Shown here one piece after another: positions 13,035 through 50,930 of a stretch of 64,000 nt of DNA; the first letter of the stretch is position 1; each line of letters opens with the position of its first letter. The notes below the pieces were generated by a model that did not search any database, was not told the DNA's origin, and was given only the letters and a program-made list of their open reading frames with translations. A program made the position numbers and the translations under genes. Source of the stretch: Eledone cirrhosa (taxonomy: Eukaryota); the NCBI GenBank assembly GCA_964016885.1, contig CAXHJY010001010.1, positions 1 through 64,000 on the forward strand, given 5' to 3'.

Positions 13035-14372
13035 TTAGGCAAGGCAGCTCTTCTGTATTACTGTGTAGCGCCAAAGAACTCGGTTCAGTGACATTGTCTT
13101 GGAGAGGTGTAAGTGTGTGAGGTCGGAATTTATCAAGTCGTCCCAGGTTTTTCTGGGTCTGCCTACTCCGTGGCTACCGTCAATTTTTATCGCCCTGCAC
13201 TTTTTAATACTGCTGTCGTCTTTCATGCGCATCACGTGACCATACCAACGTAGTCTTCTCTCGAGTAAACAACATCTGATCCCTCTTATTCCTAATGTCT
13301 CCCTTAGTTCATTTATGCTTTGCCGTTCACGTATTACACATCCAACGGATCATGTCTGCGTATCAGTCTGCGTATATCCTCTGCACACAATGCCCAAGTC
13401 TCACTGCCATGTAACATTGCTGTTCGTATGCAGGCATCATACAGCCTGCCTTTCATTTTTAGAGAGAAACCTATAGCGGCCAATAGTGGTATAAGCTCTC
13501 TGAACTTATCCTATCCCGTTCTGACTCTAGCTACTGTACTTTTAGAGCACCCTCCACCACTGCTGATTTTGTCACCCAGGTAACGGAGGTGTCCACTATT
13601 TCTATAGAACTATCTGTGCAATGGAATGAGCTAGTATTCTGTGGGCACTTGCTGCTACTTACTGCACCTGAGCACCGGCCATATATAAAATCTATATTCT
13701 TAGTTAGCTTACCTGTGATCCCACTACATATTTTCTGCACCCATACTTTACATTTGGGACATAAAATGGAGTTTCGGCCTACTCCTTTCCGACACACTGA
13801 GAATGGCCATTTCCCAGATGGGACCAGTGCCTTATTTTCCTTCCCACAAACTAGAACTTTAGTCTTAGACAGTTTAATTTTAAGTCCTTTTGATTCTAGG
13901 CCATGCTTCCATGTTTGGAATTTCTTCTCTAGTTCAGCCATTGATTCAGCTATGAGCGTTAGATCAACTGCGTATAGAAGTTCCCATGGGCAGCCGGTCT
14001 TGAACTCCTCTGTTATAGCCTGAAGGGCAATAATTAATAGTAGGGGGCTAAGGACGGAGCCCTGATCAACACCATCTTTTAGGCTAAACTCTTCACTATA
14101 TTCGTTGTTAATTCTAACCTTGCTGACTGTTTCTTTATACATGGCTTGTATAGCTCTCACAAGCCATTCATCAACACCTAGTTTTCTAAGAGCCCACCAG
14201 ATAATGGAGCGGGGTACTCTGTCAAAGGCTTTCTCCAAGTCAACAAAAGCTAAGTATAGGGGTTTACTTTTAGCTATGTAGTTGTCGTACAATGAAAAGA
14301 CCGTCTGTGGTACTTTTCTCTGACACAAACCCGAACTGCATTTCATCTAGATCAATTCGCTCTCTGATATTC
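13035..14372 (-). pseudogene. 5'-truncated RTE-clade LINE: reverse transcriptase plus Cys-rich PHD-like insert and C-terminus, disrupted
   Basis: YLAFVDLEKAFDRVPR, GVDQGSVLSPLL, LYAVDL (degenerate YADD), CRKGVGRNSILCPKCKVWVQKICSGI, GRPRKTW. Confidence 0.92.
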
Positions 14373-14377
14373 ATATA

Positions 14378-16933
14378 TATTGGTGGAACACTGGAAGGTA
14401 ATATCCGTAGTGGTAGAGCACTCCGTCCATTGGACGAGTTAGGTAGAAGTGGTTAAACAACAGTTAGTTCACCATACCGATAACAATTATTTCACCTTAG
14501 CAGATCCCCAGCTCGGAATGCGCATGGTTATAGGAACAGGAAGGACAACCGTATGAACGGGCAGGCGCAGAAACCCGGTCACTTCACACAGGCAATACTA
14601 GACTGCGTGCGAGAGGTGTAAGGGACATAACTGCGAAAGTCTGAAATGTTTTTCGGTTGAAAATAAAAATACAAAGAATCAGCCTTGTAGTTATGCAATA
14701 GGTGTTTGGCGACGTGTGGACAACGTGTAAAAAATTCATTTTTCGTGTTTAAGCAATCACTATTGCGTAATCTCTTTAGAGTAGTTATTCGTTTGTCAAT
14801 AGATAAGCCACACGTCGGATTTGCCCTTGCGTATGGCTTGGATATAGTGATGACTTTCCATTGAATGGAGTAGTCTGTACTTGAGTCCTTGTGGGACCAT
14901 ACGTGGCTAGCGAGTTTCGTGGATGAACGTCTGTCCGGATACCTGGAGGTAGACTGGTGTTTCAGGAAACGTTCCTTAAATCGGCCCTCCGCCATGCCCA
15001 CATAGGATTTGACCTCCTGTGGTTCGTTTCGTCGGTTGGAAGTGACGACAGCTTCATAAATTACAGCTGGTGCGTTGCATTGCTGTTGAAGCGGGCAAGT
15101 TTCAGGCTTACGCAAGAGCACCCTGGTGAGGTGTTGCTCCTAGGGCTGCTGGTGATGTGGACCTTCATGTTTTTAGCGCAGGAGTATCCTAGTTTAACTT
15201 TGTGTCGGTTAAAGAGGGATCGGTATTTATGACCTATGGGAAAGTGTCTATCTAAGAGGGCTAGAAATTGTTTTCCTACATTGGTTTTAACGTTGAGTGA
15301 GAAGGGAGGAGAGAACCATATAGATTGTCTATTGTTGCGCTTACTTTTCTTAATGGTGTTGTTGCTAGTGGGAGAGAAAGTGATAGGTTGTGAGAAGCAG
15401 CTGTTAGCCAACGCCGTGTCATAGTAGGGTGCCGCCCTGTCAAAGATAGTCTTATTGGAGGATTGGTTTGAGATTCTAGTACTGATATTTTTAACGAAGC
15501 TTCTAAAAACAGTGGGAGGGTGGCATGAGTCCGTGTGAATGTAATTGAGTTTCTCTTTTAGCTTATTGAAGGGTCTGTGGGTGTGTGTGCGAAGGTCTAA
15601 ATTAATGTCTAAGAAATATACGCTAGAGAGGTTGGTGTCTACTGGTATCCTAAGTCCTAACTCCTTGAAGGTAGAAGCTAAGTCTTTTTTAAACCGGTCG
15701 ATGTCGTGACCACTTTTATGGCTCCATAAAGTCAGTCCATGGTCGCGGTATATTCCCGTGTGGAAGTCTGGAATCTAACACGTAATATGTCTAAGATAAA
15801 TAGGTTAACCAAGTCACATACGTCAGCACTGTCAAACGATCCCATGGAGACGTCGAATAGGTCTGAAGTTGTAAACTTCTTTGCCCAGGCTACTCCGTCG
15901 TTGAAGAGGAGGGTTTTCTGGCAGTGAGCGATGATTTCCCTGTTTAAACCATCGACGGTGGTATAAGTGGTAGCGAAGTCCAACGCTTTGTTTAACAGAG
16001 TCTTTGAGATCGACGGGTAAAAATCGACAATGTCGAACTGTGTGAACTTCGCTTTTTTGGATTTTAAGGAGTTAAACCACTTAATTACGGAGTCGCTGTT
16101 CTCCGACTGGGGCAGGATGGACTTGGTCCTAATGGTCTTAACCGTGTTTCTAAGTATGGCCTTACTGACTAGTCACATATCTGTACGTGCCGGGTTTATT
16201 AGTCTACATGTGAGGTTAGAAGTAAAGTCTACCTTGTGATATTTCAGGATGAGGAACGCCTCCCGCTTAGCTAGAGATTGTATCTTCTTATCCACCTTAA
16301 AGTCGGCGGCAAGTTCCTTGGCTTCTGTATTAATGTCGTCGTAGGCCATAGGGTCAGCTTTCTTATACTTAGAAGTAATAGCGTTATGGGCCAGGTGGCG
16401 GAAAGTGGTGTTGTTGACTTCGTAAATATTATTAGTTTTGTAGGAAAGAACGAATGTGTTATTAGAAGACCTAACTTTCTTAATATTATATCTGAGTTTC
16501 GTTTGACAGGTATTAGTGTGTTTGCGAAAAGAAATAGTAACGACTAAGTCAAGAAGGTCCGTCTCGAAAGGAACAAATTCAGTTACCTTAGGAGGGTAGG
16601 CTCTCAATTTCATGTTGAAGGTGTTGTTGGTGCCTGTAATTTTGCCGTCAAAAGCTAGGGCTCGCCATCTTAAGCGTCTGACGACATCTTCCGCTTTTTG
16701 TAGGAGGAGCTTTTGTTAAGCATTGTTGGAGGGAGTTGGAATGTTCTTCAGGGAGTAATCCAGTTCGTATAAATCAATACTGACGTTTATGAGACGCAAA
16801 ATTGTGTAGGACACGAGGCTATAGAGAGCTCTCTCATGGTAGTAAGCCAAACTCGTACGTGGTGAAGAATCTGCTAAAAGCCAAACTTCTACGTAGTGAA
16901 GAGAATCTGCTGACCGGTGCTGGAGACGTACAT
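14378..16933 (-). mobile_element. Apparently full-length Penelope-like element, family B (RT plus GIY-YIG), frameshifted; first unit of a tandem
   Basis: YSLKNIP N-terminus, FDVSMGSFDSADVCDLV RT motif, WFSPPFSLNVKTNVGKQFL, VIYEAVV...YVGMAEGRFKERF GIY-YIG; terminus tggtggaacactggaagg recurs at 16936 and 27636. Confidence 0.92.
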
Positions 16934-17031
16934 AGTGGTGGAACACTGGAAGGTAATATCCGTAGTGGTAGAGCACTCAGTCCATGGGACGAGTTAGGTA
17001 GAAGTGGTTACACAACAGTTACTTCACCATA

Positions 17032-17071
17032 CCGAGAACAATTGTTTCATCTTAGCGGATCCTCAGCTCGG
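17032..17071 (-). ncRNA. Minimal type I hammerhead ribozyme in PLE family B terminus
   Basis: ccgag CUGAGGA ucc-gcuaa-gau GAAAC aauu GUU cucgg; stem I 5 bp; degenerate copy at 14477-14516. Confidence 0.75.
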
Positions 17072-17949
17072 AATGGGCATGGTTATAGGAACAGGAAGGA
17101 CAACCGTACGAATGCGCAGAAACCCGGTCACTTCACACAGGCAATACTAGACTGCGTGCGAGAGTTGTAAGGGAGATAACTGCGAAAGTTCGAACAGTTT
17201 TTAGGTTGAAAATAAAAATACAAAGAATCAGTCCGGCTCCTTGTAGTTATTCAATAGGTGTTTGGCGACGTGTGGAAACCTGTAAAAAATTCATTTTTCG
17301 TGTTGAGGCAATCACTATTGAGGCAATCACTATTGCGTAATCACTTTAGAATAGTTATTTTTTCGTCAATACATAAGCCACACGTCGGAATTCCCCTTGC
17401 GTATTGCTTGGACTTAGTGATGGCTTTCCATTGAATGGAGTAGTCTGTACTTGAGTCCTTGACCACACGTGGCTCGCGAGTTTCGTGGATGAACATCTGC
17501 CCGGGTACATGAAGGTAGACTGGTGGTTCAGGAAACGTTCCTTAAATCGGCCCTCCGCCATGCCCACATAGAATTTGACCTCCTGTGGTTCATTTGGTCG
17601 GTTGGAAATGACGACAGCTTCATAAATTACAGCTCGTGTGTTGCATTGCTGTTGAAGGGGGAAAGTTTCAGGCTTACGGCAAGAGCATCCTGGTAGGGTT
17701 GTGCTCCTAGGGCTGCTGGTGATGTGGGCCTTCATGTTCTTAGCGCAGGAGTATCCTAGTTTAACTTTGTGTCGGTTAAAGATGGATCCGTATTTATGAC
17801 CCCTGGGAAAGTGTCTATCTAAGAGGGCTAGAAATCTTTTTCCTACATTGGTTTTAACGTTGAGTGAGAAGGGAGGAGAGAACCAGATAATTTGTCTATT
17901 GTTGCGCTTACCTTTCTTAAGGGTGTTGTTGCTAGTGTGGGAGAGTAAG

Positions 17950-17985
17950 GAGCTGAGGATCCGCTAAGGTGAAACAATTGTTCTC
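17950..17985 (+). ncRNA. Minimal hammerhead ribozyme (inverted copy)
   Basis: gag CUGAGGA u cc gcuaa gg u GAAAC aauu GUU cuc. Confidence 0.75.
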
Positions 17986-18017
17986 GGTATGGTGAACTAA
18001 CTGTTGTGTAACCACTT

Positions 18018-18098
<81 letters not shown>

Positions 18099-18434: not shown

Positions 18435-18675
18435 ATATATTGGTAAACGGAATAGAAAATGCTGACAAATTGTTCACAGTTGAAAGAGCAAACAGCACGG
18501 ACACTCTATCTCAAAATTATTTTTGAAAAGCATTTAGAAATGCGCAACCGGTAAAAACTGAAAAAACTTAAAACCACAACTGAATACTAACCCATACAAT
18601 CACTAATACTCATTTATTCGTAATTAAACCATTTTTCAACTGTGAACAATTTGTCAGCATTTTCTATTCCGTTTA

Positions 18676-18684
<9 letters not shown>
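18435..18684. repeat. TA-flanked fold-back with ~50 bp perfect inverted arms
   Basis: tatattggtaaacggaatagaaaatgctgacaaattgttcacagttgaaa and its reverse complement at ~18634-18684. Confidence 0.8.
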
Positions 18685-18759: not shown

Positions 18760-20063
18760 GGGTGCAGAGGATATTTGTTCGCAAGATTTCTGTCTAGAAA
18801 AATTTAACATAGTAGTTTAATTTTTTAAGATATATTTATCAAACCTGGGTCAGTTTGTCTTCATGACTTGTCCTTTCGATCTCACTCGATAAAGCCACCA
18901 TTGGCTTTGATGACGGCCTCAAGGCGGCCTCGGAATCAGCTACAGGCCTTCGTCACTGTCACCCGACTTAGGCCCCTAAAGGCACTTGTGATCCTGGCTT
19001 TCAGATCGTCTTTCGTATTGCAGCTAGATCTGTTGGTGTCTCGTTCCACTGCGCCCCACACAAAGAAGTCGAGGGGGTTGCAGTCAGGCGAGCTGGCAAG
19101 CCAGATGTCAGGTGAACTGTGGTCGACGAAGTTCTCTGACAACCAGGCTTGGGTCTTTCGGCTGGTATGGCAGGGCGCTGAGTCTTTCTGCCACACGTAC
19201 GGCGTACCTGCAGCTACCTGGTCGATCCAGGGCTTTACTACCTCGCTCAGAACGCGGATGTAGCCATCGGTGTTCAGCTTGAGGCCCTCAGGGAAGAAGT
19301 CAGGTGGCATGACGTCACCTTCACTGCTGACGACACCTAAGACCAATGTTGTCACTGGAAACTTTGTCTGCATGACTCTGGGCACGTCTCTGGACGAGAC
19401 AGCGAGCCACCTGTTGTTCTGGGAGTTGATCTTCTGGTCTTGGCAGAAGTTTTTTTCGTCGGAGAAAAACCACCGCATTTCTGGCTCCAGTGGGTGTTTC
19501 AACTTGTTGATCAGCTTCTTTCCGTGCTTCAGTCGCTTTTCTTGCATCGCCTTTGAGAGAAATTGTCCTTTCCTCATCTTGTATGAAACGTAACAAATGT
19601 CATCATGTACCACCAGCCTAATTAGCTTTTCATCCACGCCTTTCTCCCGTGCAACGGAACGCATCGACTTGCTAGGTTCATTGTTGATGATATCCTGAAC
19701 TTCAGCGACAAATTCGGGCGTTCTGAAGGCGTCAGATCGTCGTTCATATGATTTTCTCTCTGATGTTGCTTCGTAGTCGAATCCTGAATCTTCCAATTCC
19801 TTTCTGACCTTTTCCAACATTCTCTTGCTGATGCTGAGAACGTCTGAAATTTCCTTATTTGTCCTCCCGGCGCGGATTCCAAGAAGAACTCCGTGTCTCT
19901 TTCACAAATTTGGAGGTTCAAAATTATTCATAATCAATTATTCTGAAAATAAATAATGGAAATATAGTCACTGTTTTTATGAAGACAAGAGTGACAACGG
20001 AAGTACAAAAGTTTGCATAAAATTAGCAGTTGAAAATTGCAAACAAATATCGTCCACACCCTG
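18758..20063 (-). mobile_element. Full-length Tc1/mariner superfamily DD37D (maT) transposon, ~1.3 kb
   Basis: Imperfect ~30 bp TIRs (cagggtgtggacgatatttgtttgcaa), TA flanks, encodes a transposase. Confidence 0.93.
18882..19931 (-). pseudogene. DD37D transposase with two in-frame stops
   Basis: MNNFEPPNL*KRH...; FSDEKNF; KDSAPCH-(37 aa between Asp residues)-SPDCNPLDF; continues *FRGRLEAVIKANGGFIE*. Confidence 0.9.
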
Positions 20064-20170: not shown

Positions 20171-21145
20171 AATTGAGATAAGCGGAACAAGTAAAATTCA
20201 AACAATCTTTCAAAATAGATTTAAAAAATATAATTTAAATATTTACCTATCCTTACTGCTTTTACCGACGGTTTCGCCTCACAAAAGATTGAAAATCCGA
20301 GGGACTCCCAATGGAAAGTTCGGCTCTTCAGAAAGCATTTTCCCTTACATAGGAAATAAAGTCCCACAGCCGGCAAATATATTGCCTTCAGCCAGCTAGT
20401 GCAGGATCGAATGTGGCCATAAACGTGACCTACACGCGAACTGGTCGTTAGTAGAAGCGGGAGTAGCATAGACGTGTTGTCTGCCATACCACTAAAAATA
20501 GCAGTGAGGTACACAACGGATTTTTTCTCTACACATGGGAGAATTTACATAAAATGAGAGTACCCTCGGAAATAAATAGGGTGTCTATGATACAGTTGTT
20601 GTTCAAAGGTATTAATTTGACATACCAGAACTATAAAATTGAGATAAGCGGAACAAGTAAAATTCCAACAATCTTTCAAAATAAATTCAAAAAATATAAT
20701 TTAAATATTTACCTATCCATATTGCTTTTACCGACGGTTTCGCCTCACAAAAGATTGGAAATCCGAGGTCTATGCTACTCCCACTTCTACTAACGACCAG
20801 TTCACGTGTAGGTCACGTTTACGGCCCCATTCGATCCTGCACTAGCTGGCTGAAGGCAATATATTTGCCGGCTGTGGGACTTTATGTCCTGTGTAAGGGA
20901 AAATGCTTTGTGAAGGGCCGAACTTTCCATTGGAAGTCCCTCGGATTTCCAATCTTTTGTGAGGCGAAACCGTCGGTAAAAGTAATATGGATAGGTACAT
21001 ATTTAAATTATATTTTTTGAATTTATTTTGAAAGATTGTTTGAATTTTACTTGTTCCGCTTATCTCAATTTTATAGTTCTGGTATGTCAAAAAAAACTGT
21101 AAAAACAACTGTATCATAGACACCCTATATATTTCCGAGGGTACT
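20171..21145 (-). mobile_element. Non-coding retrozyme-like element: 466 bp monomer, ~133 bp direct repeat and inverted junction-spanning copy
   Basis: 20171-20303 repeats at 20637-20769; 20771-21145 is the reverse complement of 20470-20171 continuing into 20636-20559; contains HHR. Confidence 0.8.
20257..20337 (-). ncRNA. Type I hammerhead ribozyme with extended stem II
   Basis: ugcuuu CUGAAGA gcc...ggc GAAAC cgucg GUA aaagca; copy with mutated core on + at 20904-20984. Confidence 0.85.
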
Positions 21146-21313: not shown

Positions 21314-21394
21314 AATTCCATATATGGTCAAAGTGATTGTCAAAAATCAGTAGTAATTCTGTGGTTGCAAATTAGTAGGGGAGATGGTGGCTAA

Positions 21395-22183
21395 ACCTGC
21401 CAGTAGGAGAAAGAGGGGAGGGGGTGGAGTAGCCCCAATCAAGCGTTTGTAGTGCCAGCTACAGCTGGGCATGAGGTCAAAGAAGATACGGGGGAGGGGG
21501 AGGGGGGGGGGAAGTCGGAACGGTAGGTAGAACAATGGGAGGTAGAAATATATAGGAAAGAAAAAATACTGAGAGTGAAGAAAAGCAAATAAGTGTAAAG
21601 AAAAACAAATGAGTGTAAAGAAAAAAGTTAAGTAAATTAAATTCTACGACCTAGGTCTCTAGCTATTGTTAGTCTGGAATAAATAAATAAATAAAGAATT
21701 GTGCCCGGGATGGAAACCTTTATTGTTTATTTCTTGGTAGTCTCTTTAGTATTTTGGCCCCTTTTGTTGACCCGTCACCGTATCATTTACGTACTTATAC
21801 CTCTTAAAAGGGTCCTCGCCTATTCCGTCCCACCTAGTTCTTTTACTTATTTCGTTATTTCTTTATTTCTTTCTTTACTTCTTTCTTTCTTTATTTATTT
21901 ATTTATTCTAGACTAACAATAGCTAGAGACCTAGGTCGTAGAATTTAATTTACTTTACTTTTTTCTTTACACTCATTTGTTTTTCTTTACACTTATTTGC
22001 TTTTCTTCACTCTCAGTATTTTTTCTTTCCTATATATTTCTACCTCCCATTGTTCTACCTACCGTTCCGACTTCCTCCCCCTCCCCCTCCCCTGTATCTT
22101 CTTTGACCTCATGCCCAGCTGTAGCTGGCACTACAAACGCTTGATTGGGGCTACTCCACCTCCTCCCCTCTTTCTCCTACTGG
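21395..22183. repeat. ~290 bp inverted repeat pair, probably the inverted pLTR of a PLE
   Basis: 21395-21690 is the near-perfect reverse complement of 21890-22183. Confidence 0.85.
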
Positions 22184-22457
22184 CTAAGTTTCGCGCCAAT
22201 TCGTGTTGCAAAAATTCTTGTGGTCAAAACAATTTTGATTGGTTGGTAGAGGTCATGTGAATGTTAAAAATTGATTTTGCGCCAAATGTAGGTTTGTGTC
22301 GGCTGATTGAGAAGTCACTGAAAAATAAGTCTTTCAAAGCAAATATGTGTGTGCGTGTGTGTAGTAGTAGTAGTAAAGAGGTTCGTTGTTGTGATAATGA
22401 TCAGCAGGGATGTGTGTGCGAACCGCAGCCTGTTGACAGTTCAAATGCCTATTAAGA

Positions 22458-23167: not shown

Positions 23168-25295
23168 TTAGGGAGAAGTGTTTAGACGGGGTCCGTATTT
23201 GTTAATAAAGTAAGATTCCTTGCTGATGCGCTGGGTGTGGGTGGCATTATCTTTAAATTTGTATAGGGGAAAGATTCTGAAGTTGGGATGATTTTGGGCG
23301 GCACAGGTATCAATGTGTTCACTCAGTGGTATTTTCCTGTATTCCCGTATTTTACTTTTGGATCTATGGACAATCATGTGTTCGCGGTGGCTGTTTTTGG
23401 TCTGGCCTATGTATTGTTCTCGACAACCTGAGCAAGTTAATACATATATTATATTTTTGATGCGCATGTGAAATTGTGTTTTACTATAAAACGTTGTCCT
23501 TCTTTGAAATAGAATTGCGAACCCTCTATTAGGTTGATGCATATGCCACAGTTGGGTCTATCGCATTTTTTTTACTGTGGGTTCCGTTGTTGTGGTTGGC
23601 AGTACTTTGGCATGTGTTAGGATGTTTTTCATTGACTTAGATTGTCTTTTGCTCTTTATGATATCGTGTGTTCGTAGGATTTGGTTCATTCTATGGTCAT
23701 TTTTCAACACAGGGATGTTCTGGAGGATGGTGTCAAAGGCCTCATTGTTGAGGGGGTTGTGTGTGGAGATGTATGGAAGAGCTTTTAGTTTCGGTTGATT
23801 TACTTTAGGGTGTCTAAGGTCCTGGGTACTGAGTTTAGGGAACGTTGGATTCCATTGTCAATTAGTGATGCAGGGTAGTCCCTGCCTATGAGTGTGTCCT
23901 TTAGTTCTTGTAGCCGTAAATAGCAGGTGTTTTTATTGGAGACTATAGTACATATTCTCTTGGCTAAGTTGTAGGAATATTAATTTTAACGTGTCTAAGG
24001 TGGCAAGAGTTGAAAGGAAGATATTGCTTGGAGTCTGTGGGCTTGTAGTATATGTCTGTTTCTATTTTTTTTGTTATGGATCTTAATGAGGATGTCGCGG
24101 AAGGGGAGTTGTTGATGGCTGTATTCCATCGTGAAGTTAATATTCGTGTTGAGCCCATTTATAAGGGTGTGAAATTCTTTAAGTTTCTCGATGTTTTCGT
24201 GCCAAAGGATGAAGCAGTCATCTAGATATCGCTTCCTGTTCCTTTCTATGTGTAAGTGGAGAGTGTTTCCAAATTTGTTTAGTACTTTAGTGTAGAGGGT
24301 GATTTCCAGGTATCCCATGACTAGGTTGGGATAAGTGGCGGCTGTTTTCGTTCCCATAGCGGTCCCAGATTTCTGTCTGTAGGGTTTGTTATTGAAAACG
24401 AAGTAATTGTTCTCCAAGATAAATTTGAGTCCCTCTATCACGAATTCTTTTCTGATGCGTTGTGGGAGTTCATTGTGGTAATTATCCAGCCAGAATTGGA
24501 TAGCTTCTATTCCTAGGTTGTGGGGGATGTTGGAGTAGAGGTTGACTACATCGAACATCACTAGTAGGGTTTGTTCAGAAAGGGGCATATTAGGGAGGTG
24601 ATTGAGCATATCTTGGTCGTCCCTTATATAGCTTTTGATGTGTTTGAGAAAAGGCTTGAGAAGGGTATCAATGAAGTTGCTAAGGCGGTGGGTTTCGCAA
24701 GCGGGGCCTGCTATTATAGGTCTTAATTTGAGATCATTGGATGAGGGGACATTGATGACTATGTCTGTGGCTTCCTTGCATGCCTTACTTATTAATTCGC
24801 TTTTATGTACTTTAGGGATACCGTAGAAAAGGCTGGATTTACTTGTGAAGTCTGTGATGAAGCTGAATTCCTTGTTAGTGAGTCCTTCTTTGTATTGGTT
24901 GATCAGAGTTTTTAGGTTTCTCATAATTTTCTGTTGATTGTAGTGTTCAGCCTTTTCGTAGTGTTTCGTTTTCCAATGTGGAGAGCGCTAAGTTGATATA
25001 GAATTCTGTCTCCATTAGGACTACTGTACTCCCTTTATCAGCCTCTTTAATTGTAATGGTTCTGTCGGTTTTTAATCTATTTAATTCTTCCCATTCTTTC
25101 TTGTTGAGGTTTGGCTTGTGTTTTTGTCTGTGCAAGTGTTGGTAAGGGAAGTTTGCGATGTGTTCACAGAATTCGTCCAGGATTTTATTTCTACCTTTTG
25201 ATGGGGTGTAATTGCTTCTATTTCTGGCTAATGATTCATCCTCATTGTACTGGTCGAATAGTTCTTCACTGAGTCGTAACTTTCTACAGAAGTCT

Positions 25296-25300
<5 letters not shown>
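23168..25300 (-). mobile_element. 5'-truncated, frameshifted Penelope-like element (Neptune-like), RT plus GIY-YIG
   Basis: FYGIPKVHK, LRPIIAGP, FDVVNLYSNIPH, QKSGTAMGT, RYLDDCF, YKPTDSKQYL, IIYVLTCSGCREQYIGQT. Confidence 0.93.
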
Positions 25301-25339
<39 letters not shown>

Positions 25340-25343
<4 letters not shown>

Positions 25344-27621
25344 CGTGCTGTAGTTCTTGGAACTTATTCCTGATCCCTCTGATGTGCCTTAGTCTTGCAG
25401 GCTTGCGACAGCATATGGCCTCACGGTCTTATTTGCTTTCTTCTTCTTCAACCTCAAGCGGATTTATCCAACCACGAGATGATGGTCAGATCCGACGTCT
25501 GCCCCTCGGTAGGTGCGAACATCCAAGAGAGAGAAACGCCACCTCATGCCAATACAGATATAATCAATCTCATTCCTGGTGTTGCCATCAGGGGAAGTCC
25601 ATATCATCTTGTGAATCCGCCTATGGGCGAAGAATGATATAGTTATTGGTAGAAGAATGGGGACCAATCGGGAACAGTGGATCAGCAGTACTTTATGGAA
25701 TGTCATTGACGAGAGGAATGATGTTAAGAACAAAAGAGATCAAACCAAATCTCGACAGCAATGGAAGGAAGTGGACAAGGAGTACAGACGTCTTGACAAG
25801 GAAGTAAAGAAGAGCTGTCGAAAAGACAAGCGCCAGTGGTTAGAAGATCGGGCTGCAGAGGCACAAGTGGAAACAGATTGAAATGATTCCAAGACGCTGT
25901 ACCGGATCGTGAGAGCTAACTGGTGGACGAAGTGGAAGCAGTTTGCCAATCAAGAGCAAAGATGCTCAGATGCTTGCAGCCATTGAAGAGCAGCCCCAGA
26001 GGTGGAACGAACACTTTCGTGAGGTCCTCAATCAGCCATCACCCAACACAGGCTTCGAGCTTGTCTGGGAGGAAGCGAGCTACCGGCTGGATGTACAACT
26101 AGACGGCATCACAAGAGCTGAGGTGGCCAAGGCCATCCGCTCCCAAAAGAATAACAAAGCGGCAGGGCTGCATGAGATTCCTGCAGAGCTTCTGAAGCAC
26201 GGCAAGAATGTAATAGAGGAGCAGCTCACCCATTTATGCAATGTGATTTGGCAAGAAGAGGAGGTGCCGGAGGACTGCGGAAATGGAGTGATTGTACCAC
26301 TACCAAAGAAGGGCTGTCTCAGCGACTGCAACAACTATAGAGGGATCACGTTGCTATCAGGGCCAGGGAAGGTATTCTGCACAGGCATCCTGAACCGGCT
26401 GAGAGCAGAAGTAGATCGTCATCTTCGAGACGAACAGGCTGGCTTCCGCAGTGGAAGGTCTTGTTCAGAGCAGATCTTCACTCTCCGAAATATCATTGAA
26501 CAATGTCGGGAGTTCCATAAGTTCCTTGTTGTCAACTACATTGACTTCAGGAAAGCTTTCGACAGTCGTCATCGGAAATCATTGTGGAAGATTGTAAGAC
26601 TCTAGGGTGTCCTAGAGAAATATATTAACATCTTCAGGTCGCTGTACCGACATTCCAGGTGCTGCGTTAGGACAAAGGACGGAAACACGGAAATGTTTGA
26701 CATCTTGACGGGTGTTCGACAAGGCTGCATCCTTTCGCCTTTCCTTTTCCTCATTGTCATCGATTTCATCATGAAGAAGACAATGAGTGACCCTCGTTTT
26801 GGCATCAGTTGGGATGGAAGGAAATTAAGCGACCTGGACTTTGCCGATGACATCGAAGTGATAGGCCATTCCCGAGAAGACCTGCAAGAGATGACAAACG
26901 TTCTAAATGACAATGCAAAGAAAGTTGGCCTGCGCATCAGTTATGAAAAAACCAAGACCATGTCGACAGGTGACCCTCCAAATCTTCCCATCATGGTTGG
27001 TCAGCGTAACATTGAATGTGTAAACCACTTCCAATACCTTCTGACGATGGGGATGCTGAGGTGGATGTGTGCACAAGGCTGGGAAAACAGCGGCGGTCTT
27101 CCAGCGACTCCGTCCGGTATGGTCCAGGTGTTCCATCGGCAACGCAGTCAAATTCCGTGTTTACATGTCCATTGTAGTACCAACAGCGATATATGTCTGT
27201 GAGACATGGAAAAGTACGAAAAGTGTATGTAACAAGCTTGATGTATTCCACCGTCATTGCATTCGGACCATATTGAATATTTCATGGTTAGACGAAGTTA
27301 GCAACGAGGAAGTGATGAGGAGGTCAGGATTGGAGAGGTTAAGGGACATTGTCCGGAAAAGGAGACGGTGGTTCGTGGGCCACATCCTTCGTTTGCCGGC
27401 ACATCGACCTGCTCATATTGCCATGGATTGGGTACCAGAACGTGGCAGGAGAGAACGGGGAAGACCACGAAAAACATGGCGGAGCACATTCAGGGAGGAC
27501 CTGCGGGAGATGGGAATTACCTGGAGAGGTGCTAGAAGGGCCGCCAGTGACAGGATCAAGTGGAGGAAGCTCGTCGCTCAATGTTCCACAAGGGATTGGA
27601 GGAACTAAGATTAAGACTAAG
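25340..27621 (+). mobile_element. RTE-clade LINE with inverted 5' segment, disrupted RT ORF and (CTAAGA/TTAAGA) tail
   Basis: Minus strand 25340-25655 encodes APE end WTSPDGNTRNEIDY...GSDHHLV; plus strand has NYRGITLLS, QAGFRSGRSC, GVRQGCILSP, DFADD, GRPRKTW. Confidence 0.93.
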
Positions 27622-27632
27622 ATATATATATA

Positions 27633-28690
27633 TAGTGGTGGAACACTGGAAGGTAATATCCGTAGTGGTAGAGAACTCCGTCCATGGAACGAGTTAGGTA
27701 GAAGTTGTTACACAACAGTTAGTTCACCATACCGAGAACAATTGTTTCACCTTAGCGGATCCTCAGCTCGGAATGAGCATGGTTATAGGAACAGAAAGGA
27801 CAACCGTATGAACGCGCATGCGCAGAAACCCGGTCACTTCACACAGGCAATACTAGACTGCGTGCGAGAGGTGTAAGGGAGATAACTGCGAAAGTCCGAA
27901 AAGTTTTTAGGTTGAAAATAAAATTACAAAGAATCAGTCCGGAGCCTTGTAGTTATGCAATAGGTGTTTGGCGACGTGTGGACAACGTGTAAAATATTCA
28001 TTTCTCGTATTTAGGCAATCACTATTGCGTAATCTCTTTAGAATAGTTATTCGTTCGTCAATACATAAGCCACACGTCGGATTTCCCCTTGCGTATGGCT
28101 TGGACTTAGTGATGGCTTTCCATTGAATGGAGTAGTCTATACTTGAGTCCTTGAGGGACCATACGTGGCTGAAGGTAGACTGGTGGTTCAGGAAACGTTC
28201 ATTAAATCGTGCCTCCACCATGCCCACATAGGATTTGATCTCCTGTGGTTCGTTTGGTCGGTTGGAAGTGACGACAGCTTCATAAATTACAGCTGGTGTG
28301 TTGCATTGCTGTTGAAGCGGGTAAGCTTCAGGCTTACGGCAAGAGCACCCTGGTGGGGTGTTGCTCCTAGGGCTGCTGGTGATGTGGGCCTTCATGTTCT
28401 TAGCGCAGGAGTATCCTAGTTTAACTTTGTGTCGGTTAAAGAGGGATCGGTATTTATTACCTATGGGAAAATGTCTATCTAAGAGGGCTAGACATTTTTA
28501 TCCTACATTGGTTTTAACGTTTAGTGAGAAGGGAGGAGAGAACCAGATAATTTGTCTATTGTTGCGCTTACTTTTCTTAATGGCGTTTTGCTAGAGGGAG
28601 AGTAAGTGTTAGGTTTTGAGAAGCCGCTGTTAGCCAAAGCCGTGTTATAGTAGGATGCCGCCCTGTCAAAGATAGCCTTATTAGAGGAAA
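27633..28690 (-). mobile_element. 5'-truncated family B PLE (GIY-YIG end and terminus)
   Basis: Copy of 14378-15460; ORF 27934-28395 has VIYEAVV...YVGMVE. Confidence 0.92.
27732..27771 (-). ncRNA. Minimal type I hammerhead ribozyme, intact
   Basis: ccgag CUGAGGA u cc gcuaa gg u GAAAC aauu GUU cucgg; palindromic stem III aacaauuguu. Confidence 0.82.
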
Positions 28691-28693
28691 GGT

Positions 28694-29235
28694 ATGTATG
28701 TATATATACACATACTACTGTACGTCTGTATACATATATGTATGTACGTATACATACTTATATTTAAGTAATAGCCGTACTAAGAGTGAGAAATGAAATT
28801 TCGTTTCATTTTTTTCCATTTATCGTTTTAGGTGCTCCCGGCCGATTAACTCTCTCGATATGCAAATTAGGTTGCACAGCCGTTAATATACATAAGGAAA
28901 GTATATACTTTCAGACGTTCAATCATCTGGCAGGAAGGTATACGGTGCTGACGATAGCTAATAAGCTTGAAACTAGTACATCGTTCATTTGTCAGTGTTG
29001 AACAAAAGGTCAACGATGGTTGCTAAACACTGTACGGCTTAATTCGGGATGTTTGTTTACAAACAAACCGAGCATTATAATAAATGTTCGGTGAATCCAT
29101 ACGTACATATTTATATGTGTGCATGTATGTATATATATACATACTACTGTACGTCTGTATACATATATGTATGTACATATACATACATATATATATATAT
29201 ATATAAATAAATATATATAAATGCACACATACATA
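28694..29235 (+). mobile_element. Non-coding retrozyme-like element, ~429 bp monomer with terminal direct repeat
   Basis: catactactgtacgtctgtatacatatatgtatgtac at 28711 and 29140; HHR inside; same family as 43816-44584. Confidence 0.8.
28942..28984 (+). ncRNA. Minimal type I hammerhead ribozyme
   Basis: acggug CUGACGA u agcu aaua agcu u GAAAC ua GUA caucgu; palindromic stem III acuagu. Confidence 0.88.
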
Positions 29236-36140: not shown

Positions 36141-36209
36141 ATTTTATTATGCGCATTTCAAAAACAAATATCATCATGCAATAACATTTGTGTTTTCATC
36201 AGATAAAAC
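36141..36209 (-). ncRNA. Type I hammerhead ribozyme in a PLE/retrozyme terminal fragment (36110-36330)
   Basis: guuuuau CUGAUGA aaacacaaaugu...auauuuguuuuu GAAA ugcgc AUA auaaaau; palindromic stem III augcgcau. Confidence 0.85.
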
Positions 36210-39967: not shown

Positions 39968-40123
39968 AATATAGATTTTGAGTATATGTTGGTTGTATAC
40001 CAACACCTCAGTATGCAGGCTGGAGCACTCGACGAAGTGCGCAGGTTGGTTTGGTTACTCCGGAGTAATGTAAAATAAAGTTAAATAAAAAGTCAAATGT
40101 TTAAAATTTAGCTTCGTTTATTG

Positions 40124-40176
40124 CTGCTATATATATTTCAGTGACAGCCATCTTCGGCTGTGACCTCTTCAGGCAG
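40124..40176 (-). ncRNA. Type I hammerhead ribozyme in PLE family C terminus
   Basis: cugc CUGAAGA ggucacagcc gaagau ggcugucacu GAAA uauau AUA gcag. Confidence 0.82.
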
Positions 40177-43066
40177 TCCGAATTAGTGTGGTATAGACAA
40201 GTACATATGTTGCTGAGGTGTATAATATTGTCAATACTCTTATATGCCCAGTTCCTGGTTGGGTTGTTATTTCATTGAGGAACTAAAATAATATGAATTC
40301 AAACAAACGAATTTCAGTGTCAAAGGGCCTCTTCTCCTCTCATTGGTCAGTTGTTAGAACATTCCTCATTCTAAGTGTTGTTATTGTTGGAGTTAGCTTA
40401 AAAAATTGATAAAGTGGTAGAAGGGACAAGGTGTTAAAGGAACAAAATAACAAAAAAGGTGTCAAACTTCCCATTGGTCAGTTCTGAGAGCATTCCTCAG
40501 TCAGAAGTCTGTAGAATTATTTCTGGGGTGAGGCTCCCTGTAGTGTTTGTGTTTGCTATTGTTAAGTACATTTGACCTCTACCATTATTTTGGTAGTGTT
40601 GTTGGAGTTGTGGTCAGCTTATGTCTTGCCTCTGTTGACAATTTAGAAGTATCTGTGTGTGTGTTTCTTCATCTCTCCTGCCACCATCTCTCATAGTGGT
40701 GGTGGTGAGGGGGGGGGGGGGTTCTTCCATGTATATGAAGAAATATAAGGCAATAAATGAAGTTGTATGATTTGAAAATAAATAATTAATAGAGAATAAA
40801 GAATAAATGAAAAATTGGTGAAAAAGTAATGAAAATGAATATGGAGAAGTGAAAAATGAAATGAAGATTCAAATAAAGTAGGATAAAGTGTGTGTGTGCT
40901 ATAACCAATCTCAAGGTCAGAAATATGTTGGATAGATTGGTATGAGGGACAAGATGTTAAAATAAGATAATCAAACAAAATGTGTTTGTGTAATAATCAA
41001 TCTCAACTTAAAAATAAGGTGATACAGTGAAGAGGGCAGAAAACAAATAACAAATTAATAAAGAGAAAACAAGATTTAAAATTGGGACTTGAAAGTCAGA
41101 AATTAAGTAAATTAAAATGTGTTTGTGTTATATAGATGTTGGCCAAATTATAATGGCTGTGTCCGATTCAATCACTAAGCTATCATGGTGTCTGCTCAGC
41201 CTGGGTTGTTCCCTGTGGCTTGAGGGTAGTTCACAACCTAGGGTATTTTTACTGCCCATATAGCTTGAGGGAGGTCTGGCTGAGAGGTGTTTACATGTTC
41301 AGTAGAAGTCCCTATAGCTTGAGGGGAGATCACATCTTCTTGTGTTGCTACTATCCATATATATTAAGGAAGGTCCCGGCTCTAAGGTGTCTGCATGTTC
41401 CGAAGAATTCGGTTCTGAGGTTTATCAGGCTGCTTCCACCTCTTAGTATCTCGAAGGTCTCGTTCAGGCATAGTTTGCATATGCAAGATCCCCCTTTATC
41501 GGGTGGTACTTTCCTGATTATGTACCAGGCCAGAGAGTACGGGGTCCTGTCCAGCTTAAGCTTCCAGATCAGGTCGGAGAGAGCCATGCTTTTCCTTTTG
41601 GCCTCCTTATTGAATGAATGGCGATGGTTGTACCAGCTGTCTTTAAAGCTCGTTGATGTGGCTCCTATGTAGAGGTTTTCGGAGTTGGGGGTTTTAACCC
41701 TACAACCGTATACTAGGTTCTTCTTGAGGCATTCATTACCAAGGGGGCATGATTCGGGGTTTCTGCAGTTGCAGAGAGTGGTCAACCTCTGCGTGCCTAG
41801 ATTAGGGTTCCCGTTATGTGTTACATGTTGGTCTTCCCCCAGGCAAGGTGGGGGGTCCCCGGGTCTGTTTGGGTTTCTTGGGTGGGCTCTTGGTCCCCCC
41901 TTCCATCCTTTCACATGGTTCTGCTGAGTGTTTGTATTGCCATCTTCTGGTTGTGTCTGGTTTTTAAGCCTACTCCTGTTGATGCTAGCTATGTGTTGGG
42001 CCAGATTTCTCGTGGTGGAATACGAGAGCTTCACAGTGTGTCTATTGAAGATCCTGTGGTATCTGTGGTCCCTCGGGAAGCATTTATCAAGTGCTCCAAA
42101 GAATGATCGGGCCAAGCTGTTCTTTACTGCTATAACCAATCTCAAGGTCAGAAATATGTTGGATAGATTGGTATGAGGTACAAGCTGTTAAAATAAGATA
42201 ATCAAACAAAATGTGTTTGTGTAATAATCAATCTCAACTTAAAAATAAATATAAGGTGATACAGTACCAATCTATCCAACATATTTCTGACCTTGAGATT
42301 GGTTATAGCACACAGACACTTTATCCTACTTTATTTGAATCTTCATTTTATTTTTCACTTCTCCATATTCAGTTTCATTACTTTTTCAACAATTTTTCAT
42401 TTATTCTTTATTCTTTATTCTCTATTTATTATTTATTTTCAAATTATACAAATTATATTATTTATTTTCTGTTTTCTTCATTTATTGCCTTATATTTCTT
42501 CATATACATGGAATAACCCCCCCACCACCACCACCACCACCACCACTATGAGAGATGGTGGCAGGAGAGATGAAGAAAAAACACACAAAGATACTTCTAA
42601 ATTGTCAACAGAAGCAAGACATAAGCTGACCATAACTCCAACAACACTACCAAAATAATGGTAGAGGTTAAATGTACTTAACAATAGCAAACACAAACAC
42701 TACAGGGAGCCTCGCCCAAGAAAGAATTCTATAGACTTCTGACTGAGGAATGCTCTCAGAACTGACCAATGGGAAGTTTGACACTTTTTTGTTATTTTGT
42801 TCCTTTAACACCTTGTCCCTTCTAACACTTTATCAATTTTTTAAGCTAACTCCAAAAATAACAACACTTAGAATGAGGAATGTTCTAACAACTGACCAAT
42901 GGGAGGAGAAGGGGCCCTTTGACACTGAAATTCGTTAGTTTGAATTCATATGATTCCAGTTCCTCAGTGGAATAACAACCCAACCAGGAACTGGGCATAT
43001 AATAGTATTGACAATATTATACACCTCAACAACATATGTACTTGTCTATACCACACTAATTCGAAA

Positions 43067-43117
43067 TGCCTGAAGAGGTCACAGCCAAAGATGGCTGTCA
43101 CTGAAATATATATAGCA
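43067..43117 (+). ncRNA. Inverted copy of the family C hammerhead
   Basis: ugc CUGAAGA ggucacagcc aaagau ggcugucacu GAAA uauau AUA gca. Confidence 0.8.
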
Positions 43118-43169
43118 GCAATAAACGAAGCTAAATTTTAAACATTTGACTTTTTATTTAACTTTATTT

Positions 43170-44584
<1,415 letters not shown>

Positions 44585-45189: not shown

Positions 45190-45273
45190 GTTATTCCGGG
45201 TTGAATCGGAGGTAACCACAGTAAGTAAGGTACTCAATACATTGCAGAGTATAAAAGTTTTAATATAGATGAG

Positions 45274-45320
45274 ATTCTACAGGACTAGAACTGTTTCATT
45301 CTTTAGAAATCATCAGGAAT
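45274..45320 (-). ncRNA. Type I hammerhead ribozyme in 135 bp module, copy 1 of 5
   Basis: auuc CUGAUGA u uucu aa agaa u GAAAC ag uucuaguc cu GUA gaau. Confidence 0.88.
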
Positions 45321-45321
45321 T

Positions 45322-45367
<46 letters not shown>

Positions 45368-45541: not shown

Positions 45542-45588
45542 ATTCTACAGGACTAGAACTGTTTCATTCTTTAGAAATCATCAGGAAT
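45542..45588 (-). ncRNA. Hammerhead ribozyme, copy 2 of 5
   Basis: Identical to 45274-45320. Confidence 0.88.
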
Positions 45589-45821: not shown

Positions 45822-46359
45822 ATATATATATATATATATGTGTGTATATATATATATATATAAATGGAAAAGAATGAAACGAAATTTCATTTCTCAGTCT
45901 TAGTACGACTGATACTTAAATGTAAGTATGTATGAATACGTACATACATATATGTATACAAACGTACAGTAATATGTATATATATACATACATGCACACA
46001 TATATATATTTGTACGTACGGGTTTACCGAACATTTATTATAAAGTTCGGTTTGTTTGTTTGTAAACAAACAAACAGCCCGAATGACGCTTAAAGTTCGG
46101 TAAACCCATACGTACATATATATATGTTTGCATATACGCCTGTATACATATATGTATGTACATATACATACATACTTACATTTAAGTATCAGCCGTACTA
46201 AGAGCGAGAAATGAAATTTCGTTTCATTCTTTTCCATTTATCGTTTTCGGTGAGCCCGGCCGACTAACTCACTCGATATGCAAATTAAGCTGCTCAGCCG
46301 TTAATATGCATGTGGAAAGTATATACTTTCAGACATTCAATCATCTGGCAGGAAGTTAT

Positions 46360-46402
46360 ACGATGCTGACGATAGCTAAAAAGCTTGAAACTAGTACATC
46401 GT
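46360..46402 (+). ncRNA. Minimal hammerhead ribozyme (28942 family), intact
   Basis: acgaug CUGACGA u agcu aaaa agcu u GAAAC ua GUA caucgu. Confidence 0.88.
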
Positions 46403-46615
46403 TCATGTGTAAGTGTTGAACAAAAAGGCGACGATGGTTGCCTGAACACTGTAGGGCTTAATTCGGGCTGTTTGTTTGTTTACAAACAAACAAACCGAAC
46501 ATTATAATAAATGTTCGGTAAACCCATACGTACATATATATATGTGTGCATCTATGTATATATATACACTACTGTACGTCTGTATACATATATGTATGTA
46601 CGTATAAATACATAC

Positions 46616-46706
<91 letters not shown>

Positions 46707-47825: not shown

Positions 47826-48336
47826 ATATATATATATATATAAATGGAAAAGAATGAAACGAAATTTCATTTCTCAGTCTTAGTACGACTGATACTTAAA
47901 TGTAAGTATGTATGAATACGTACATACATATATGTATACAAACGTACAGTAATATGTATATATATACATACATGCACACATATATATATTTGTACGTACG
48001 GGTTTACCGAACATTTATTATAAAGTTCGGTTTGTTTGTTTGTAAACAAACAAACAGCCCGAATGACGCTTAAAGTTCGGTAAACCCATACGTACATATA
48101 TATATGTTTGCATCGCCTGTATACATATATGTATGTACATATACATACATACTTACATTTAAGTATCAGCCGTACTAAGAGCGAGAAATGAAATTTCGTT
48201 TCATTCTTTTCCATTTATCGTTTTCGGTGAGCCCGGCCGACTAACTCACTCGATATGCAAATTAAGCTGCTCAGCCGTTAATATGCATGTGGAAAGTATA
48301 TACTTTCAGACATTCAATCATCTGGCAGGAAGTTAT

Positions 48337-48379
48337 ACGATGCTGACGATAGCTAAAAAGCTTGAAACTAGTACATCGT
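48337..48379 (+). ncRNA. Minimal hammerhead ribozyme (28942 family), intact
   Basis: Identical to 46360-46402. Confidence 0.88.
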
Positions 48380-48590
48380 TCATGTGTAAGTGTTGAACAA
48401 AAAGGCGACGATGGTTGCCTGAACACTGTACGGCGTAATTCGGGCTGTTTGTTTGTTTACAAACAAACAAACCGAACATTATAATAAATGTTCGGTAAAC
48501 CCATACGTACATATATATGTGTGCATCTATGTATATATATACACTACTGTACGTCTGTATACATATATGTATGTACGTATAAATACATAC

Positions 48591-48691
<101 letters not shown>

Positions 48692-49785: not shown

Positions 49786-49883
49786 AATGAAGTATTTCCG
49801 TCGGAAGGTACAGGAATAAAAGAGTGCTCTATGTAGGCTACAGAGCTTATTAGTTATGTAATAAACAACATAAGATAATTATT

Positions 49884-49942
49884 TAATTTACCAGTGGTTT
49901 CTTGAAGACAGGTGTTGTATCTGTCTTCGGTCGTCAGAATGA
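49884..49942 (-). ncRNA. Hammerhead ribozyme, partly degenerate, in an inverted segment upstream of a PLE fragment
   Basis: ucauu CUGACGA cc gaagacag...cugucuuc aa GAAAC cacug GUA aauua. Confidence 0.65.
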
Positions 49943-49999
49943 ATAAAAAAACATGGTGTTTTTATTAAATATGGATTTGAAAGTAAAATTTAGGAAATA

Positions 50000-50930
50000 T
50001 GAAATTGGGGCTGAAAGAGACGGGCGAAATTGCAACACCAATTGGGAAGATCTTCTTTAGTCTTCACGATAAAATTTCCCACCCCAACACCGCTACCACA
50101 ATATCAACAGAAACATTATTAAAGTTTCCTACAGCACTACACCCGATTTGTACAAAACATTGCTTCATCTAACAACAGAAACTCCTCTCTAACAGAACAA
50201 ATAACAACGATATTGGTGGTGAGCAAACTAGGAGTTGTAACTGTCCGGATAGATAATCGTGCCCCCTCAACAATAGATGCTTAGAATAAAACGTGGTCTA
50301 CCAGGGCAATGTGAGGACAGAAAACTCCATCAAGGCCTACATCGGATTAACCACCTGCGATTTTAAGACCCGCTATTACCAACACCAACATACATTTAGA
50401 AACCCGGCTCAGCGACACGCGACAGCACTTTCTGGTCATATTGGGGACCTTCAAGACAACAATATTACTTACTATCTAAGTTGGAGCATACTTTCCAAGG
50501 AAAAATCTTACATGGGAGGATGCCGTCCATGCAATTTATGCTTGGAGGAAACGATCCTGATGATGTTTGCAAAGGAAAGGACCAACTCTTAAAAAAAGGA
50601 TAAACTTGTTACCTCGTGAAAACACAGAATACATAAGACATATCTTATATTGAAACCCCCTCACGACCCGGCTGGGTAGACCTCGGCTGTATCTCTTTCC
50701 TATTTACAAACTAAGATAGAGGAAAGCCCAAGCATACTTAGGTAGAAGTGACATTTTTTTCTTTTCTTTTTCTTCGTTAGTTACACACTCTAATTAAACT
50801 TACGTGGATCTTTGCATATCTACATTATTATATCAGTTTCCATTCTTCTTTAGGTTATCCCGAATTTGTTCACTCTTGTTAAATATACATAGTACCGGCT
50901 GAACACGTAGCCATGTTCTTTTTTTTTGGG
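50000..50930 (+). pseudogene. Degraded 5'-truncated PLE GIY-YIG region (related to families B and C) plus 3' UTR
   Basis: VVYQGNV...YIGLTTCDFKTRYYQH...ATALSGHI...CNLCLEE; upstream NRNIIKVSYS. Confidence 0.85.

Follow-up and report, generated by a model that had tools for sequence, protein, structure and literature searches.

This locus raises the question of how a 429-bp repeat unit carrying a hammerhead ribozyme (HHR) is copied into new sites, and by which enzyme. The window analysed, that is the whole stretch of 64,000 nucleotides, is AT-rich animal DNA, not unlike that of cephalopods, crowded with (TA)n tracts and fragments of transposable elements, and holds four copies of the unit, here called A to D (Table 1). 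A first-pass annotation had described them as a retrozyme family of about 429 bp with stem-preserving variation between dispersed copies, which start at different points of one circular sequence. We examined the anatomy of the copies, their termini and their neighbours, among which Penelope-like elements (PLEs) are prominent.

Table 1. Coordinates of the copies of the 429-bp unit and of the neighbouring elements discussed in the text (positions in the window)
Feature	Position	Strand	Description	Basis
Copy A, 429-bp HHR element	28694..29189	+	496 nt, 1.16 units	Lag-429 redundancy, alignments
Type I hammerhead of copy A	28931..28989	+		Pattern match and base-pair inspection
'Tail' module	28763..28823	+	Hairpin 28786-28816; recurrent tailed 3' terminus 28823, then (AT)n	
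5'-truncated PLE with Hydra-clade features	27636..28693	-	HHR at 27766 in pLTR; tailed 3' end 27636 on (TA)n	
Sister PLE (comparator)	16937..18018	.	Minus strand, truncated at 17949; head-to-head with inverted 69-bp piece of its own pLTR, 17950-18018	
Copy B, inverted arm	43814..44045	-	From the equivalent of ~29036-29042, over the unit junction, to 28823; tailed end on (TA)n	
Copy B, direct arm	44048..44584	+	~1.26 units, tail-less end; HHR at 44322 with mutated core	
Copy C	45860..46620	.	Inverted arm 45860-46089 and direct arm ~46092-46620; HHR intact at 46366	
Copy D	47840..48595	.	Inverted arm 47840-48069 and direct arm ~48072-48595; HHR intact at 48343	

The 429-bp period is borne out by copy A itself, in which 28694-28760 recurs as 29123-29189 with 3 differences in 67 columns, and self-comparison gives an exact 38-nt run at lag 429. 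This 67-bp terminal redundancy is a partial tandem and not an LTR pair. The extent first proposed, 28694..29235, was right as to the start and the element, but the element ends at about 29189, since 29190-29235 is TA-rich flank. The alignments show that copy A is 5'-truncated and that its 3' end lacks a tail and runs into (TA)n-like flank. No listed ORF over copy A reaches 90 aa, and the RT and GIY-YIG ORF of an autonomous PLE is absent from the unit, whose GC content is 0.35. The circular RNA predicted from the unit has an MFE of -117 to -130 kcal/mol, which sets it apart from 60 dinucleotide shuffles by a z of -5.6 to -6.2; this strong self-pairing is owed partly to TA-rich palindromes.

With regard to the hammerhead of copy A, stem I is formed by 28942-28947 pairing with 28979-28984, the core by CUGACGA (28948-28954) and GAAA (28969-28972), and helix II by a U·U and then four base pairs capped by the loop AAUA. 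Helix III is minimal and palindromic (ACUAGU), followed by UA, with a predicted self-duplex of -6.8 kcal/mol. Judging from the HHR topology, self-cleavage would presumably occur after 28978. Stem I is extended, with a 6-nt bulge, and perfect in copy B; in its distal part (28931-28935/28985-28989) two of the five pairs are broken in copy A and all are intact in copy B. The HHR core pattern matched three times in the window against 0.00 matches expected by chance, recovering all the hammerheads annotated earlier (at 28942, with CUGA at 28948, and at 46360 and 48337), and the sequences reported for them proved accurate (stem I acggug/caucgu versus acgaug/caucgu; loop II aaua versus aaaa). The type I core is thus intact in copies A, C and D, three of the four. 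Copy B, whose hammerhead at 44322 had been overlooked, carries GAAA>AAAA and CUAG>CAAG and differs at 4 of 43 HHR positions. An Rfam search of the window at the gathering threshold gave no hits. Free folding of three 66-nt HHR segments did not yield the HHR fold, at energies no better than those of shuffles, and in the circular fold the HHR is not the minimum-energy structure (stem I pair probabilities 0.06-0.27). The HHR pattern scan returned no loci in viral contigs and one in metagenome contigs (L001:753-783). The core at L001 is identical to that of the retrozyme HHR at 30 of 31 positions, including the U·U in helix II and the CUAG of helix III; it lies in an otherwise unrelated repeat of ~1075 bp with short telomere-like TAACCC runs, and the 31-nt core is all that the two have in common.

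Copies B, C and D are successive units of a ~2.0-kb tandem duplication with 95-97% identity overall, each unit of which also includes a 3' LINE fragment together with a second, small HHR-bearing element. Copies C and D differ by 2 substitutions in 476 columns of the element and by none in 390 columns of the LINE spacer. The description of the copies as dispersed is therefore not sustained: B, C and D are one insertion that was triplicated, and the window has just two independent retrozyme insertions. Aligned over 221 columns, the inverted and direct arms of B/C/D show 10 substitutions, a divergence compatible with separate templates or with age. The 478-column alignment of copies B and C has 8 substitutions and, in addition, 12 columns with gaps, compared with 1 in 384 in the neighbouring LINE spacer (p ~0.05). 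The changes in copy B (44322-44410) gather near the HHR, one of them being the expansion of a 7-bp GAACACT repeat; this excess could stem from gene conversion, from a mutational event confined to this spot, or from an error in the assembly. The second small HHR element lies on the minus strand at 45190-45325, with other ends near 45584, 47352, 47612 and 49314. It has a CUGAUGA core and a longer helix III, occurs twice per 2-kb unit amid (TA)n tracts, and showed no similarity to the 429-bp unit.

We then compared divergence inside and outside the ribozyme. Copies A and C differ by 35 substitutions in 427 aligned columns (~8%), and the monomer outside the HHR indeed differs at many positions, as had been stated (33 of 384 columns); the HHR itself has 2 substitutions in 43 columns and is not significantly better conserved than its flanks in the window (one-sided Fisher p=0.29). 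Including the extended stem gave 5/68 versus 30/359 (p=0.51), and copies A and B differ at 4/43 columns in the HHR and 38/382 elsewhere. Sliding 43-nt windows along the A/C alignment contained two or fewer substitutions in 116 of 385 cases. On the predicted circular fold, 17 of the 35 A/C changes fall at paired sites and 6 of them keep the pair; the 11 pair-breaking changes compare with 15.0 expected by permutation (p=0.09), and a further permutation test gave p=0.13. The claim of stem-preserving variation accordingly finds no significant backing in one pair of independent insertions (p=0.29 for the HHR, p=0.09 for the whole fold). No fewer than 7 of the 35 A/C differences are peculiar to copy A, with ~98-100% of the family depth in run X1 carrying the alternative; this has the look of decay in copy A. 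A separate feature is an 8-bp indel (29043-29069 versus 46462-46496), in which each of the TGTT/AACA hairpin arms is longer or shorter by 4 bp between copy A and copies B-D; the stem is kept, yet DNA-level palindrome correction could be the source.

Family-wide data on variants and read depth lean towards a conserved HHR, short of a formal test or proof. The variant tally drew on the 40 rows listed out of 101; setting aside five rows that fall in the PLE flank, one at 28709 and one that repeats a position left 33 variable positions. Of these 33, a single one lies within the 43-nt HHR, and it is N7, the free position (p=0.073); the G·U/A-U site of stem I is absent from the rows listed. Depth in the HHR bins was 1.6 times the median of the other 16 bins in run X1 and 3.5 times in run X6, which is from another organism; in X6 these bins rank 1, 3 and 4 among 19.

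The family is abundant. Contigs matching it numbered 12,906 in X1, 3,196 in X6 and 10 in X4, and 71,552 matching reads were found in the RAD run X17; these four runs are the basis of the counts, from which the small-share runs X8-X16 were left out. Part of the unit was present in 16 of the 19 listed runs under 13 organism labels, often in small shares. In X1 the summed depth of the unit is ~30-100 times that of the adjacent PLE, a ratio that is not a copy number. Head-to-tail joints (29122 to 28694) occur in X1 contigs and X17 reads, in records too short for two HHRs, and the other unit junction (28823 to 28824) is continuous in copies A-D. Since both unit junctions are continuous in DNA, the template would be tandem or circular.

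Moreover, the ends of the copies are not distributed freely along the unit. The 3' ends lie at two sites ~61-67 nt apart, 28756-28762 and 28823, and the 5' ends alone vary: copy A starts at 28694 and the direct arm of B/C/D at the equivalent of ~29081-29085. The direct 3' ends of the two independent insertions (28756-28760 in copy A, the equivalent of 28762 in B/C/D) are at most about 6 nt apart, with a chance of ~0.03, and all three ends fit within 70 nt, with a chance of ~0.08. In B/C/D an inverted arm, ending at 28823 on (TA)n, is joined 5'-to-5' with a direct arm ending at the equivalent of 28762, so that a tail of 61-63 nt is found on the inverted arm alone. The tailed terminus is also seen outside the window. 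Among the loose ends listed, 28823 followed by (AT)n accounts for 79 + 42 contigs in X1 and 42 + 30 in X6, and in both runs depth falls 3.8-fold immediately past 28823. Depth in X1 decreases with distance back from 28823 (rho -0.61, p=0.005); the corresponding gradient in X6 is not significant (rho -0.24, p=0.32). The tail-less terminus rests on the window copies, as 28724-28761 was left out of the genome-wide end mapping as a repeat. Both independent insertions have (TA)n flanks, within which no TSD could be read. Read or loose ends in X17 at 28797-28802, 28865-28868 and 29044 were rejected as termini because they coincide with all three AATT sites (restriction artefacts). The first-pass annotation was thus correct in that the 5' starts differ, but these different starts are 5' truncations; its notion of permuted termini finds no support at the 3' side, where the ends are fixed, the outcome that it had itself named as refuting. 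Taken from the sequence, this suggests start sites that are preferred, not random, on a tandem or circular template.

The left neighbour of copy A offers a modest, single-locus clue to a possible mobilising partner. The junction alignment shows a 5'-truncated PLE joined head-to-head with copy A at 28693/28694, with 0-3 nt of microhomology. This PLE is 89.6% identical to 14366-15470, up to 28696, and its homology ends at the first base of copy A; no PLE homology was found right of 29189 and no retrozyme sequence left of 27636, and the two 5'-truncated elements meet with neither (TA)n nor host DNA interposed. In the sister PLE (Table 1) the inverted 69-bp pLTR piece lacks the 66-nt tail, stopping 66 nt short of the end. 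At copy A the PLE arm is tailed and the retrozyme arm is tail-less, and the latter stands where the sister PLE has its own inverted end. The flanking PLE family has a tail of 66 nt, three direct copies that end at most 1 nt apart, and HHRs at 27766 and 17066. Like the retrozyme HHR, these local PLE HHRs open helix II with a U·U and have a palindromic helix III; the retrozyme compared with eight local PLE or HHR-element termini showed no similarity (for the best pair, 7 of 100 shuffles reached the score or exceeded it).

By its linker, HHR and (TA)n target the flanking PLE is putatively of the Hydra type. The CxCX5C linker is intact in a related PLE at 41 kb and, across a frameshift, in the sister copy at 14.5 kb; in the 27.9-kb and 17.4-kb copies the last linker Cys is substituted. 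YKT stands at the DKT position in this family. A Pfam search of the flanking PLE ORF gave no hit. The element has a GIY-YIG region, and the GIY-YIG-like clusters that come nearest to its protein in the Atlas are eukaryotic, most commonly Mollusca (1-2 annotated members). Two of 11 PLE/LINE fragments matched Pfam, both under the curated cut-off. Several PLE families occur in the window, one of them with weak RVT_1 and GIY-YIG Pfam matches. A second Hydra-like PLE (40068-43174) has an intact CxCX5C and a ~900-bp inverted end copy, carries HHRs at 40172 (-) and ~43073 (+), and lies directly left of the (TA)n of copy B; no tail difference was found between its two ends. Further PLE fragments or HHR-like motifs lie at 36202 (-), 37707 (+), 54758 (-), 23171-25363 (-) and 49786-50600 (+). 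Near-perfect inverted pairs (46-310 bp, 95-100%) at 20171-21145, 21390-22194 and 18440-18679 are unrelated to the retrozyme, and an ORF at 18936-19901 is one that we take to resemble a mariner-type transposase.

The 429-bp unit is probably a high-copy, non-coding, non-autonomous retrozyme that is copied by the RT/GIY-YIG machinery of PLEs. This reading is supported by the head-to-head arms of B/C/D, which match the published PLE signature as well as two PLEs of the window, 16937-18018 and 40068-43174. An EN+ PLE unit is described in the accessible texts as having an inverted 5'-truncated copy, a one-sided tail and, in Hydra, (TA)n targets (10.1101/2021.04.23.441226; PMC3846280). The template would be multimeric transcripts or circles from a putatively dimer-dependent hammerhead, which would account for copies longer than one unit. 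A PLE protein would nick both strands of a (TA)n tract, a mechanism supplied by in vitro work on the Anolis PLE, which, in the available part of that account, nicks both strands of AT-rich DNA, does not need HHR cleavage and begins RT at two internal sites bounding the tail. On the retrozyme RNA, RT would begin at two preferred internal sites, 28823 and 28756-28762, and not at the ribozyme cut. The two cDNAs, from opposite strands, would halt at variable points and join 5'-to-5', leaving a direct and an inverted arm with the tail confined to one end. In B/C/D both arms would be retrozyme; in copy A a tailed Hydra-type PLE arm would be paired with a tail-less retrozyme arm. The window copies, with one HHR each, would be passive descendants. 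Because copy A has one arm from each element, one integration may have used both RNAs. We tentatively propose, at rather less than even confidence, that the two strands were primed by a Hydra-clade PLE protein on different templates, one being its own RNA and the other a retrozyme RNA unrelated in sequence. Several points count against the PLE reading: the independent insertions are two, the chimera was seen once, pLTR homology to the local termini is lacking, cross-mobilisation between PLE types was not seen by Arkhipova et al., the tail is longer than published, the PLE at 40068-43174 has no tail difference, no TSD is legible in (TA)n, no window copy has two HHRs in tandem, the depth gradient is not significant in X6, and the HHR fold is not the predicted energy minimum.

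Copy A and its PLE could instead have landed independently in a shared (TA)n hotspot, or the retrozyme could have arrived later, with deletion of the remaining PLE; the junction would then be uninformative about the partner enzyme. We regard this as possible but somewhat doubtful: the window is packed with element fragments nested in (TA)n, the 5' end of the retrozyme is TA-rich and thus target-like, and the case is a single locus without pLTR homology, but the truncated 5' ends abut with neither (TA)n nor host DNA between them, the PLE does not resume past 29189 with no retrozyme left of 27636, and the orientation and one-sided tail match the sister PLE unit. It is less probable, indeed unlikely, that the unit is the pLTR or 5' module of an autonomous PLE outside the window, its copies being short truncated PLE insertions in partial tandem. 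The insertion anatomy is the same as that of PLE stumps, a partial tandem with one HHR resembles a pLTR, and the local PLE HHR likewise has the U·U and the palindromic helix III. Against it, what lies downstream of the tail is the same 429-bp unit again and not an ORF; the loose ends listed 5' of the HHR (X1/X4/X17) are family variants and not coding sequence; the summed depth in X1, although not a copy number, exceeds that of the adjacent PLE ~30-100-fold; and the bulged, extended stem I is unlike minimal PLE HHRs.

The least probable reading, to which we give little credence, is RT from random starts on a circular RNA, yielding freely permuted copies in which selection keeps the HHR stems while the flanks drift. 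Copies that exceed one unit (1.16, ~1.26) with both junctions continuous would agree with it, as would the HHR depth peak in X6 and the N7 position of the sole HHR variant tallied among the rows listed. Random starts do not explain why the direct 3' ends of both independent insertions coincide to within about 6 nt (chance ~0.03) or why the 28823 terminus recurs genome-wide, and in the window neither HHR conservation nor stem preservation is significant.

The PLE reading can be set against systems already described. Metazoan non-LTR retrozymes are, in the accessible text of PMC7229834, low-GC, non-coding units of 150-450 bp with a type I HHR. As far as its sequence allows a judgement, the 429-bp unit conforms to the criteria for animal non-LTR retrozymes, and the family assignment of the first-pass annotation suits it: the unit is non-coding, 429 bp long and 35% GC, with a type I HHR and a predicted self-paired circle, and thousands of contigs in one run match it. 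Unit size, low GC, type I HHR, predicted self-paired circle and co-occurrence with PLEs are shared with the retrozymes covered there, as are the U·U at the base of helix II with axolotl HHR_Amex2 and the weak palindromic helix III with the dimer-dependent amphibian HHRs. Copies of 1.2 units, inverted arms and fixed 3' ends, known here from DNA, are not part of that description. Li, Clavereau & Pollet (10.64898/2026.07.22.740005), as far as the available part of the preprint goes, require two HHRs for an 'active' retrozyme copy. No two HHRs in tandem were found in the window, where copies of 1.16-1.26 units have one HHR each, and by this criterion no window copy is 'active' on its sequence. The same text treats retrozymes as non-autonomous PLEs on the evidence of co-occurrence and pLTR homology, mainly in vertebrates, with pLTR homology in 24 of 57 Xenopus families. 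Our reading agrees with theirs, within that part, on the partner and on dispersed monomers as non-transposing offspring; it differs in being based on insertion anatomy and a chimeric junction, without pLTR homology to the local PLEs.

The features given for the Hydra clade in the available text of 10.1101/2021.04.23.441226 are the CxCX5C linker, the DKT motif, the HHR and the (TA)n target. Like Hydra-clade PLE units in the portions seen of that source, PMC3846280 and PMC11167929, the retrozyme insertions combine 5' truncation, partial tandem, inverted copy, one-sided tail-like extension, (TA)n and HHR; two internal RT start sites, as described for PLEs (PMC11167929 among the sources), would apply to the retrozyme from its 3' ends. 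Unlike those units, as there described, the retrozyme has no ORF, its tail measures 61-67 nt compared with 30-40 bp in the accessible published PLE tails, and copy A pairs two unrelated arms; its extended stem I also sets it apart from minimal PLE HHRs. Cross-mobilisation between PLE types was not seen by Arkhipova et al. 2013, according to the accessible text (PMC3846280). We found no account in the literature available to us of the 429-bp family or of a PLE/retrozyme chimera; supplements beyond those texts may list the family.

The retrozyme class is known already, and partnership with PLEs was proposed in 2020 and argued in 2026. The 2020 review notes that animal retrozymes carry no motif that points to a mobilising partner, and the accessible part of the 2026 preprint (10.64898/2026.07.22.740005) argues for PLEs while leaving the mechanism open. 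For the 429-bp family, the picture of random rolling-circle permutation is corrected. PLE-type ends together with a PLE/retrozyme chimera supply the in vitro assay that exists for PLEs with a concrete template, start sites and a candidate enzyme. If the reading of copy A as a single integration is true, copy A would be direct physical evidence that PLE enzymes reverse-transcribe animal retrozymes from fixed internal starts; these starts would be recognised by structure or spacing (a tail of ~65 nt) and not by pLTR homology, and the partner clade (Hydra) and a cis-module (28763-28823) would thereby be named.
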